A DNA stretch of 64,000 bases from a virus (lineage: Duplodnaviria; Heunggongvirae; Uroviricota; Caudoviricetes), in the IMG/VR virus record IMGVR_UViG_3300045988_009865, positions 24,263 through 88,262 of that record; one strand, 5' to 3'. The notes beneath the pieces were generated by a model. The model ran no database searches, was not told the DNA's origin, and saw only the letters and a list, made by a program, of their open reading frames with translations. Shown here piece after piece: positions 12,850 to 14,525 of this stretch (position 1 is its first letter; every line of letters starts with the position of its first letter). A program made the position numbers and the translations under genes.

Positions 12850-13125
12850 GCAGATTTTTTATAAGGCTACTGCCATCCTTCCATACATTACCTTACCTTA
12901 CCTCACCTGACCTGACCTGACCCTACCTAACATTACCGTGCCACACCTCACTTAAGAACCCTCTTAAAAGACTCTTAAGTGATGTAATCGAATTTTTATG
13001 TAGCTCCGATTAACTACCCATACCTCACCTCATCCAACCATACCATGCCTTACCAGACCGCACCTTACCTTACTAAAAGACCCTGTTTAAAGACCTTTTA
13101 AAAAGGAGCCTCCGAAGAGGCTACC
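12850..13125. repeat. two copies of a composite intergenic repeat (ACC/ACCT-rich tract plus conserved AAGA(A/C)CCT..TTTAAAAGAC box)
   Basis: Direct comparison with 14255-14525; shared strings aaccctcttaaaagactcttaagtgatg and ggctactRccatcc. Confidence 0.6.
13090..13122 (-). terminator. intrinsic terminator downstream of 13134-13574
   Basis: gagcctc-cgaa-gaggctc hairpin; U-run on the minus strand. Confidence 0.5.
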
Positions 13126-13133
13126 TAGTCAAC

Positions 13134-13574
13134 TTAGAAAGGTTTTCTACGTTGCTTGTTAATGTTAGCTTTCATAGCAGCTAAATGGTTTTGCTGTTCA
13201 ATCAGTCGTGAACGTTCTTGATGACTAAGTGCCATAGTGTTCACATTCTCAATCGCTTGAGTGGCTTGCTTTAAAGCTCGACCAATCTTGCCAGACATTT
13301 TACGTTTTGCAATAGTTGCTTGATGCTTAGGTTCAACCACACGATAACCAACACCCATTGAAGCAACCAGATAAATCTTCTCTTCTTTAAGAAGCTTCTC
13401 AATAAACTTCTCAAGTCGGTTTAGACGTGTAAGCGCATAAGCCTTCATTTCATCTTCGTACTTAACAATGTCACCTTGATAAGTTGGCTTCACAATACCT
13501 AAGAAGGTATCCATCTCAGAATGTGATACAGTGTCACCGTAACTAAACTTTGCTGCTAATGCTTTTGTATTCAT
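13134..13574 (-). CDS. hypothetical protein
   Basis: 146 aa ORF. Confidence 0.4.
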   Translation of the reverse strand: MNTKALAAKFSYGDTVSHSEMDTFLGIVKPTYQGDIVKYEDEMKAYALTRLNRLEKFIEKLLKEEKIYLVASMGVGYRVVEPKHQATIAKRKMSGKIGRALKQATQAIENVNTMALSHQERSRLIEQQNHLAAMKANINKQRRKPF

Positions 13575-13576
13575 AA

Positions 13577-14179
13577 TTAAACGTTACCTTCTGAAATAAC
13601 TTCTACAGAAAAACGACCAAATCGTGGACGCCAATCACCTACACCACAAAGGTTGCCAGCATTTTCCAGAACCATCAAGAGTTCTTCTTTGGTAATTTGT
13701 TCTTCATCGAACATCAAACCAAACTCTACAGACCAGTCACGGAAGATTGGACGGTAGCTCATAACTCGTGCTGTACCAATCTTAACAGACTTAGCATAGA
13801 TAAAGTCTGGATTCTTAGCAAGTTCTTGTGGGTTTGCTGGACAGTTCTTAATAGTCATTGGGAAGACTACATCTGTCAGCATAATGGCTCGGTCAATTAC
13901 CTTACCAAGTTTGTTGAGTTTTGCACCAGACTTGATACAAGCCTCAATCATCTCACCGTTCATAACAAAACCTAACTGCTCATCGTAGTAACAAGAAGTT
14001 ACCAGTTGGCTTTCTGCTAAGAGCGCATAGTCTTCGTCAGTCTTTTTACGTTTACTGGACAGAGACTTGTGATATTTTGTCAGAGGATTTAATGGGTCTG
14101 ACAGCGTATCAGCGTGGCTCAGGAAAGGACGAGTACCAGTGATTTTGATATTTAACAGTTTCATAGCATTTAGCTCCAC
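13577..14179 (-). CDS. hypothetical protein
   Basis: 200 aa ORF. Confidence 0.4.
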
Positions 14180-14254
14180 ACTTTAGTTTATTGTTAAGTT
14201 GTTTGTAAAGAACCCTCAACAGAAGACTCTTTAGAAACTTGGTAGATTTTTAAT

Positions 14255-14525
14255 GTGGCTACTACCATCCACCCATACCTCACAACACCATGCCATACCC
14301 GACCGGACAAGACCAGACCCTACCGCGCCAGACCTCATTAAAAGACCCTATTTAAAGACCTTTTAAAAAGGTAAGTCTCATTTTAATGTAGCTGAGACTA
14401 ACTACCCATACCCTACTTTACCTTACCGTACCGTACTTTACCCGACCGTACCGGACAATACTTAACCCTACCTCACCCGACCGGACATCACTTAAAAACC
14501 CTCTTAAAAGACTCTTAAGTGATGC
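14255..14525. repeat. two further copies of the composite intergenic repeat
   Basis: Same ACC-rich tracts and conserved boxes as 12850-13125. Confidence 0.6.

Follow-up and report, generated by a model that had tools for sequence, protein, structure and literature searches.

A probable type II VIPR locus with four predicted guide RNA genes in a Felix O1-like phage

Two intergenic gaps and the two genes lying between them very probably make up a single VIPR locus, of type II and the SUSP1 clade, a reading to which we give a probability of about 0.95 on the strength of sequence features, and each of the four composite elements in the gaps would be a vrRNA gene on the minus strand. The locus lies in a 64-kb stretch of DNA (the window, meaning the whole stretch analysed) from a Felix O1-like phage (Felixounavirus). 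Type II VIPR loci are recognized by a minimal RAMP protein (RRM core, G-loop, and thumb), by 9–16 tandem YNNGG units per vrRNA with GGY constant and NN hypervariable, and by NN guide bases that match mobile-element DNA at 80% or more without self-targeting, and the locus has a RAMP gene with the expected contact residues, a neighbouring vap gene, flanking vrRNA genes, a tail pseudoknot, and guide matches to a satellite element. VIPR systems are already known from 2026 preprints, and the locus type is therefore not new.

VIPR stands for Viral Interference Programmable Repeat, and the papers that support the present reading are preprints, which present it as a CRISPR-like, phage-encoded system (10.64898/2026.04.26.720920, 10.64898/2026.04.26.720927). 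There, the SUSP1 system is reported to silence the transcription of competing mobile elements and to be programmable against GFP reporters and phage lambda, with vrRNAs of about 100 nt that co-purify with the Vipr protein, as seen by small RNA sequencing and pull-down (10.64898/2026.04.26.720920, 10.64898/2026.04.26.720927). Silencing is described there as lost when the GGY motifs are perturbed, and GFP silencing as lost when vipr is deleted, while the free NN dinucleotides are said to read double-stranded DNA with every third base skipped (10.64898/2026.04.26.720920, 10.64898/2026.04.26.720927). The original prediction had offered a repeated protein site as one of two readings of the regularly spaced GG doublets, and this reading agrees with the SUSP1 cryo-EM structures, from a 98.5%-identical system, in which every repeat carries one Vipr protomer and the GGY bases are held by neighbouring protomers (10.64898/2026.04.26.720927).

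[quoted passage not shown] By hand count on the alignment to the 36pp sequence, H17, K33, R39, E71, M72, K82, G87, K88, R138, C173, D177, W178, and R179 are all kept at the same numbering, and these are the residues to which the cryo-EM preprint assigns the contacts with GGY, with the skip base, and with the non-target strand (10.64898/2026.04.26.720927). The AF2 model of the protein has a pLDDT of 95, and among solved structures it best matches the Csm3/Cas7 folds of the type III-A and type VII effectors; vB_EcoM_E9, typing phage 1, and other phages have a Vipr with 100% identity to it. The next ORF (13134–13574, minus strand; 146 aa, phrog_5926) is taken to be vap1, a vipr accessory protein, because it follows vipr and is 99.3% identical to the SUSP1 gene in the corresponding place, next after vipr; sequence searches of Pfam and the PDB gave no match for it. 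In the preprints, vap1 is given as a predicted DNA-binding accessory protein adjoining vipr (10.64898/2026.04.26.720920, 10.64898/2026.04.26.720927). In public records of the phage group, both genes are labelled 'hypothetical protein' and the arrays appear as 'repeat_region', 'DR_4', 'promoter', or 'terminator'.

The composite elements lie at about 12849–12984, 12986–13106, 14241–14371, and 14374–14524, two in each gap, as had been predicted from the letters, and all in a single orientation. When ACC was counted at ten successive 5-nt steps on both strands of the 64-kb window, a score of at least 5 of 10 occurred at these four elements only, on the plus strand and with a maximum of 9 of 10, against a reverse-strand maximum of 3 of 10, and the outcome was the same with AC or RC in place of ACC. 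In register, the unit reads C-N-N-A-C along the plus strand and Y-N-N-G-G along its complement. The minus strand, already named as the sense strand, is also that of vipr, and along it each element consists of a 39-nt G.U-rich hairpin, 10–16 YNNGG pentamers, and a 32-nt pseudoknot tail. The original prediction was right about the elements and their regular GG spacing; it missed the guide information in the NN positions and the link to the gene for a protein partner between the gaps. Two further motifs had been singled out: ggctacYRccatcc, which is present and belongs to the pseudoknot, and a conserved box, which is a hairpin that forms fully on the minus strand only.

Upstream of vipr lies a candidate sigma-70-like promoter (14527–14582, minus strand; TTGACA at 14582–14577, a 16-nt spacer, and TATACT at 14560–14555; 11 of 12 consensus positions), which overlaps an inverted repeat (14527–14566) just past the ligase stop codon, and which we infer to drive vrRNA-U1 and vrRNA-U2, the direction in which it faces. 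The type X hairpin of vrRNA-U1 (14486–14524, minus strand; about 18 bp, G.U-rich) directly adjoins a tract of 16 YNNGG units (14406–14485, minus strand; NN = CC CG GA AG TA AT CC AC CG AA AC AC AA AA AG AT), and the 3' tail (14374–14405, minus strand) can fold into a pseudoknot with stem 1 GUAGUU/AGCUAC and stem 2 AGUCUC/GAGACU. In vrRNA-U2, a type Y G.U-rich hairpin (14333–14371, minus strand) is followed by 12 units (14273–14332, minus strand; NN = CT GC AG CT CT CC CG AT AT GT GA AT) and a predicted tail pseudoknot (14241–14272, minus strand; GUGG/CCAC and GGUAG/CUACC).

Downstream of vap1, a terminator-like hairpin (13100–13122, minus strand; AGCCUC-UUCG-GAGGCU then CCUUUUU) stands where a minus-strand terminator had been proposed; its stem-loop scans as such at 13122–13107 by consensus match only, with six pairs, a UUCG loop, and then CCUUUUUAAA. 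The U-run doubles as the 5' arm of the next hairpin, the type Y G.U-rich hairpin of vrRNA-D1 (13068–13106, minus strand), which precedes a tract of 10 units (13018–13067, minus strand), or 11 with a unit embedded in the hairpin at 13068–13072 (NN = (AA) AA GC CT AA AT AT TG GA GA AT), one of which is irregular (UUGGA), and a tail with a predicted pseudoknot (12986–13017, minus strand; GUAG/CUAC and AAUCGG/UCGAUU). The last element, vrRNA-D2, has a type X G.U-rich hairpin (12947–12984, minus strand), 13 units (12881–12945, minus strand; NN = GT AC AA TA AG CA CA CA GA AA AA AA AT) that form a low-complexity guide with GGUCA and GGUAA three times each, and a predicted tail pseudoknot (12849–12880, minus strand; AAGG/CCUU and GGCAG/CUGCC). 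A 19-nt inverted repeat followed by a U-run (12802–12848, minus strand) may be the end of the array; a sigma-70-like promoter for the next gene (TTGACA-17-TATTTT) lies inside it, and the record of a relative annotates a promoter at the same position. No promoter for vrRNA-D1 and vrRNA-D2 was identified in the sequence, and their transcription has to run past the terminator-like hairpin at 13100–13122 or start from a further promoter.

Comparison with relatives bears on what the elements are for. The original prediction had suggested a search of related genomes for conservation. From one phage to another the flanking modules hardly change, while the NN positions and the number of units vary, and the number of elements per gap ranges from 1 to 3. 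Across 64 unique elements from relatives, with 855 units, the two N positions hold 1.92 and 1.85 bits, position 1 of the pentamer is a pyrimidine in 99.9% of units, and G occupies the first G position in 76% and the second in 98.6%. These figures weigh against the leading idea of the original prediction, that the GG-N3 tracts form two-tetrad RNA or DNA G-quadruplexes regulating the neighbouring genes. The doublets, at a spacing of 5 nt, are formally compatible with two-tier quadruplexes, but a quadruplex would not conserve the following pyrimidine, and a first G kept in only 76% of units beside a pyrimidine kept in 99.9% therefore fits protein recognition of GGY, not tetrads. Neither does a quadruplex require a covarying pseudoknot tail or explain the co-occurrence of a RAMP gene in unrelated phages, and in the solved SUSP1 complexes the guanines are held by protein (10.64898/2026.04.26.720927). 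Quadruplex formation as the role of the tracts is thus highly improbable, and it is not needed to account for them.

In a set of 19 distinct tails, which represent only four independent tail classes, 93% (93.4%) of cells in the tail pseudoknot are paired, vs 30–40% when the partners are slid, and both sides have changed in 10 of 12 pairs, including 6 of 6 pairs for the second stem. The type X hairpins favour the sense strand across relatives (mean −16.5 kcal/mol vs −8.8 kcal/mol antisense), with about four G.U pairs each. A conserved G.U-rich hairpin precedes each repeat tract, a feature absent from the accessible part of the VIPR preprint text. The predicted vrRNAs measure 82–112 nt, a size compatible with the small RNAs of about 100 nt reported for SUSP1. 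On unrelated IMG/VR contigs, similar arrays sit directly downstream of a phrog_4652 (Vipr-family) gene in the sense orientation. Over the whole window, Rfam at gathering thresholds returned no match, including none to a CRISPR direct-repeat family, and scanning for tRNAs was also negative. The literature on repeats and noncoding RNA of Felix O1 held nothing relevant, the direct repeats of the Felix O1 genome paper being others.

It could also be argued that the elements do no more than bound a cassette or act as hot spots of recombination, comparable to the promoter-stem-loop cassettes of T4-type phages and devoid of RNA function. The two genes are missing from Felix O1 and from 12 of 33 related loci, where a single gap has an element resembling an e1/e4 fusion, which, like the copy number of 1 to 3 per gap, is what such boundaries would produce; recombination between the repeats probably deletes the two genes in relatives. 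Passive boundaries, however, leave unexplained the position-specific conservation of the pentamers, the covariation of the pseudoknot, and the matches of guides to a satellite, and there is very little chance that they are the whole account.

About half of the records of Felix O1-like phages, Felix O1 included, have one or two intact vrRNA genes but lack vipr throughout the record, and some guides of such vipr-less relatives still match the satellite; the topic of orphan vrRNAs is absent from the accessible VIPR preprint text. It is conceivable, though rather doubtful, that the orphan vrRNAs are functional, whether by using Vipr supplied in trans by co-infecting relatives or satellites or as decoys against rival VIPR systems, and that the G.U-rich hairpin serves vrRNA biogenesis as a dedicated signal for processing or loading. 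RNA anti-CRISPRs (Racr), which Camara-Wilpert and colleagues reportedly described in 2023 as solitary CRISPR repeat units in phages, offer a parallel in that a phage encodes a guide-like RNA with no gene for the cognate effector in its genome, as do Felix O1 and its relatives; the window differs in carrying the effector gene.

A third set of explanations assigns the tracts a role in the transcript or the DNA itself, free of any protein partner: an anti-Rho spacer poor in C, a Shine–Dalgarno-like landing pad, an R-loop origin, or an antisense rut site. The sense strand is indeed G-rich and C-poor and the antisense strand C-rich and unstructured, arrays fill intercistronic gaps in other phages, and replication genes are nearby. 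Under none of these roles, however, would one expect a 5-nt register kept strictly with NN left free, a conserved pseudoknot, or a RAMP gene linked to the arrays. In a relative whose genome ends are known, they are elsewhere, near wV8 gene 55, and a protein-free role has next to no probability. A packaging site or genome end was rejected on the position of the UAB_Phi87 terminal repeats, near wV8 gene 55 and far from the locus, and a replication origin or R-loop on a GC skew that tracks only the direction of transcription. Antisense rut, a Shine–Dalgarno sponge or ribosome landing pad, clusters of primase sites, and a TRAP-like ring site were dropped because a linked RAMP gene and a solved structure were found. 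TRAP binds the trp leader of Bacillus at 11 G/UAG triplets set 2–3 nt apart, a period of about 5 nt, with one subunit per repeat, and acts in attenuation as a closed ring for which the spacer bases hold no information. Both systems thus combine a conserved triplet, two spacer bases that are free, and an oligomer with one subunit per repeat, whereas in the VIPR reading the information lies in the spacers and the protein forms a filament of RAMP subunits.

If the locus is a VIPR system, its guides should have targets in mobile elements, and two of the four do have candidates. With the 1-nt skip rule (NNx) applied to the four guides of the window, U1 matches 27 of 32 guide bases (84%) in a satellite gene (L159, at 18073–18119, and L160), and U2 matches 22 of 24 (92%) in a satellite baseplate gene (L158, at 7360–7394). 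The mismatches of U1 in the two satellite variants complement each other, so that a variant matching it at more than 90% is to be expected. The targeted island, the yecE island, is an 11-kb satellite element in E. coli chromosomes that presumably parasitises the phage, and it is probably the satellite described for SUSP1, because tape-measure and baseplate genes stand side by side in both. Thirteen guides match the island at 80% or more, 12 of them from relatives, and besides U1 and U2 the island is hit by 11 guides of related loci (12 with a second parse of U2); by a binomial estimate, a 27/32 match would arise by chance in a single island with a probability of about 6e-8. The two mismatches of U2 fall in its two 3'-most units, beside the pseudoknot, the end from which assembly is reported to proceed; the skipped base of its target lies on codon position 1, vs the wobble position given as the rule in the preprint. 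No self-targets were found in the window, the best self-matches (66–73%) being equal to the background of shuffled guides.

For vrRNA-D1 and vrRNA-D2, no targets were found in the sequences scanned. Both guides are short and AT-rich, and 1.3 Mb of DNA from unrelated phages yields chance matches of about 81%; the 80% threshold therefore says little for them. In a seed scan of IMG/VR with 9-unit sub-patterns, the 5' half of U1, the 3' part of U2, and D2 gave no match, the 3' half of U1 gave four matches, none of which extends (best 24/32), and three D1 matches (19/22) on unrelated AT-rich contigs were judged to be chance. BLAST of gap 1 and of the baseplate region of the window (1–2400) against E. 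coli genomes found no match, a homologue search with the baseplate hub protein of the window gave no match attributed to E. coli, and tblastn of the satellite baseplate and tape-measure proteins against the window was negative.

The proposed mechanism draws on SUSP1, and vrRNA expression, ribonucleoprotein formation, and silencing in this phage are taken from the SUSP1 preprints by analogy. The four vrRNAs would be transcribed from the minus strand as 10–16 YNNGG pentamers followed by the invariant pseudoknot tail. Vipr protomers would polymerise along each vrRNA, one per repeat, with each GGY sequestered, and the exposed NN dinucleotides would pair with double-stranded DNA by a '1-nt skip' (NNx NNx ...). 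The resulting gapped R-loop would block transcription at the target, and, to judge from the guide matches, at least two of the four guides would be aimed at genes of the 11-kb E. coli satellite island.

The locus shares with SUSP1 its gene order and position downstream of a DNA ligase gene, the YNNGG repeats, and the classes of tail pseudoknot and hairpin. It differs in its guide sequences, in its phage, a Felixounavirus, and in having two vrRNAs upstream and two downstream, whereas SUSP1 (L022) has one and three. Class 1 CRISPR-Cas effectors (Cas7/Csm3) have in common with VIPR the RAMP fold, including its G-rich loop and thumb, one protomer per fixed RNA step, a conserved structured handle that caps the guide, and nucleic-acid-guided defence against mobile elements. 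In VIPR, the step is 5 nt and three of five bases (GGY) are sequestered, so that a non-contiguous guide reads its target as NNx; in addition, the preprints report silencing rather than cleavage, no PAM, and phage encoding. No CRISPR-type repeat-spacer array was found in the two gaps, where the repeats are whole composite elements with pentamer tracts.

A reading from sequence alone can thus single out VIPR loci in raw DNA. Recognition of the locus corrects the annotation as 'hypothetical protein' and 'repeat_region' and yields four guides, two of them with predicted targets in a satellite island of E. coli. The elements would belong to a class of systems, described only recently, in which an RNA guide with a non-contiguous code recognizes DNA, a class that has been proposed as ancestral to the RAMP proteins of CRISPR, and closely related phages with and without vipr make a natural test set.

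The phage is a Felix O1-like myovirus, and a 4-kb query around the locus matches 260 phage records at 92-96% identity, nearly all from Felixounavirus or its close relatives (the Felix O1 group). The minus strand carries genes from ~9.3 to 20 kb of the window, and within this region the composite element of the original prediction is confirmed in two intergenic gaps (12757-13133 and 14180-14588) as four copies in a single orientation. This rests on a period-5 ACC score, the number of ACC occurrences at ten successive 5-nt steps, taken on both strands of the whole 64-kb window: the score is at least 5/10 at only these four places, all on the plus strand (maximum 9/10), and at most 3/10 everywhere on the reverse strand. 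The in-register unit reads C-N-N-A-C on the plus strand, equivalent to Y-N-N-G-G on the minus (gene-sense) strand. In 33 related loci (5 GenBank records and 28 IMG/VR contigs fetched via the ligase gene), each gap holds 1-3 elements, whose flanking modules are almost identical from phage to phage; unit number and the bases at both N positions show almost no agreement from one phage to another. Among 855 units from 64 unique elements, a pyrimidine occupies position 1 in 99.9%, the information content of the N positions is 1.92 and 1.85 bits, and G is present in 76% at the first G position and in 98.6% at the second. Position-specific conservation of this kind within a hypervariable array points to a 5-nt recognition register and speaks against a decaying microsatellite.

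A scan of IMG/VR for the exact pattern ACCNNACCNNACCNNACCNNACCNNAC returned plain pentanucleotide microsatellites and many unrelated viral contigs with like tracts, often in tandem arrays. In nearly all such contigs, the C-rich strand lies opposite the coding strand of the flanking genes. The arrays often occupy the whole intercistronic gap, and the gene just upstream has a common C-terminal GIGDxRP..G.YG.F motif in 8 of 18 loci (by eye). All three motif-bearing upstream genes that were scanned match phrog_4652, as does the ORF between the two gaps of the window (13577-14164, minus). This family, with hundreds of members, lacks both a Pfam domain and an informative name; its profile leads to one solved structure, PDB 36pp 'SUSP1 Vipr protein' (E 1.4e-80), to which the protein of the window is identical at 192 of 195 residues. 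Independent support comes from its AF2 model (pLDDT 95), for which the best solved folds are the Csm3/Cas7 RAMPs, and every Vipr residue named for contacts with GGY, the skip base, or the non-target strand is kept with the same numbering (hand count on the alignment). The ORF after vipr (13134-13574, minus) shares 99.3% identity with its positional counterpart in SUSP1 and is named vap1 on that ground. Given the near-identity to an experimentally characterised system and the independent checks of each sequence-level feature, the locus can be assigned with high confidence to VIPR (Viral Interference Programmable Repeat) of the SUSP1 clade, and we infer that it would be expressed and active in this phage. 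The proposal of a repeated protein site was essentially right, as the locus is near-identical to a Vipr/vrRNA system with one protomer per repeat, and the G-quadruplex reading is unnecessary.

VIPR consists of a Vipr RAMP protein of ~20 kDa and, in most cases, one accessory gene (vap), with genes for guide RNAs (vrRNAs) on the flanks; a vrRNA carries 9-16 YNNGG repeats and an invariant 3' tail, which is a pseudoknot in the SUSP1 clade, and the SUSP1 vrRNAs (~100 nt) co-purify with Vipr (10.64898/2026.04.26.720920). Cryo-EM places one Vipr protomer on each repeat, with GGY sequestered and NN presented for pairing (10.64898/2026.04.26.720927). Target DNA is double-stranded and is read as NNx, one nucleotide being skipped each time, on either strand and without a PAM, and the outcome is transcriptional silencing (10.64898/2026.04.26.720920). 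Whereas SUSP1 has one upstream and three downstream vrRNAs, the window has two upstream (U1 and U2, 16 and 12 units) and two downstream (D1 and D2, 10-11 and 13 units), with predicted sizes from the first unit to the pseudoknot end of 112, 92, 82-87, and 97 nt, respectively. D2 (12881-12945) contains GGUCA three times and GGUAA three times, D1 (13018-13067) has one irregular unit, UUGGA, and the tracts of relatives show local 5-, 10-, and 15-nt duplications. The D2 repeats and these duplications suggest that slippage may be one source of new or degenerate guides.

On the sense strand, every tract is followed by a 32-nt tail with two interlocked stems, i.e., a pseudoknot. Nineteen distinct tails, falling into four classes, have 93% of cells paired, versus 30-40% with partners slid by 1-3 columns, and both partners vary in 10 of 12 pairs. 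In front of every tract is a 39-nt hairpin (14486-14524, 14333-14371, 13068-13106, and 12947-12984, minus) that forms fully only on the sense strand; its ~4 G.U pairs make it roughly twice as stable there as on the antisense strand. These hairpins fall into two classes, X and Y, whose differences are compensatory; a similar remnant lies at ~14207-14232, after the last upstream vrRNA. The predicted vrRNA sizes suggest that the hairpin is outside the mature RNA. It is mentioned in the text of neither VIPR preprint and may go beyond what they cover. A sigma-70-like promoter, TTGACA-16-TATACT (14555-14582, minus; 11 of 12 consensus positions), lies just past the ligase stop codon, within an inverted repeat, and is directed into the upstream vrRNA pair, which it probably drives, perhaps together with vipr-vap; a terminator-like hairpin is found 3' of vap. 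The gene downstream of the array (12373-12756, minus; 127 aa, phrog_4332) invariably borders the vrRNAs on the right in the relatives, with or without vipr, and has only a marginal PADLOC match (E 0.019).

Of the SUSP1-clade guides with identifiable natural targets, 18 of 20 converge on an E. coli satellite phage carrying tape-measure and baseplate-hub genes (10.64898/2026.04.26.720920). The four guides of the window match the window itself no better than shuffled guides (66-73%). A 9-unit seed of U2 scanned against IMG/VR found one contig, L158 (51% GC), which the full guide matches at 22 of 24 bases. A guide of the related locus L025 matches the same 2-kb stretch at 28/34 within a short tape-measure gene, a near-identical L018 guide matches this site at 26/34, and a second L025 guide matches at 20/22 in the gap ahead of the following gene. 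With this stretch as a probe, at least 80% of it is found in 170 of the 5,426 complete E. coli genomes, where it bears the annotation 'tape measure protein | phage baseplate protein', and in the two genomes examined it belongs to an ~11-kb island (L159 ~10400-21650, NZ_CP058725.1; L160 ~8800-21650, NZ_CP076305.1; in contig L158, 5000-10000) inserted in a DUF72 gene between yecD and yecN. This island, the targeted satellite, contains a serine recombinase, the baseplate and tape-measure genes, and several hypothetical genes, as well as long gene-free stretches, e.g., L159 18276-19307 and 19971-21608. Thirteen guides match the islands at ≥80% (12 from related loci and one parse of U2), not counting U1, whose 27/32 match lies in frame within a 184-aa hypothetical gene and puts the skipped base at wobble; the mismatches to U1 are complementary between the two island variants. 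The U2 target (L158 7360-7394; L159 12247-12281) lies in a low-complexity linker, AATGKTATTNDGGA, of the baseplate gene, with the caveat that the skipped base is codon position 1 rather than wobble, a departure from the usual pattern; both mismatches fall in the pair of units closest to the pseudoknot. For D1 and D2, no target was found in any sequence scanned, including the satellite islands and the IMG/VR seed scans.

Long YNNGG arrays, with as many as 12 elements in tandem, occur in unrelated IMG/VR contigs (L073 2217-3397; L060 4598-5046; L058 3331-5319; L082 2096-2613; L131 2363-3144; also L088, L069, L139, L142, and L149), with short family-specific linkers (GGCTAATGGGT, GGCAGGT, or a GGGTGCCAATGGCAC hairpin then ATTTACAAATCAAGAG); several have the Vipr-family C-terminal motif in the gene directly upstream (phrog_4652 in the three scanned). 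They are presumably other VIPR types. Felix O1-like sequence also lies inside GU169904.1 (Staphylococcus phage SA1), including a 100% identical vipr, and MG065664.1 (Campylobacter phage A132), both probably mixed or contaminated assemblies. The record of phage warpig (MN850637.1) stops within the repeats of vrRNA-D2, where the assembly probably broke.

The vrRNA-bearing gap sequence is present in 231 phage records, and vipr, by tblastn, in only 118 records of the Felix O1-like group. About half of the Felix O1-like records, with Felix O1 itself (L005 2599-2717; AF320576.1 57730-57848) and 12 of the 33 loci among those concerned (further examples are L006, L010, L018, L027, L029, and L031-L033), keep 1-2 vrRNA genes, with hairpin and tail intact, without vipr or vap. 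Two of 11 such orphan guides (L018 and L029) match the satellite at ≥80% (83-88%). VIPR has already been described, but only months ago and in preprints only; the words 'orphan' and 'Felix' are absent from the first of these (10.64898/2026.04.26.720920), and the orphan vrRNAs of the Felix O1 group may extend beyond what the preprints cover.
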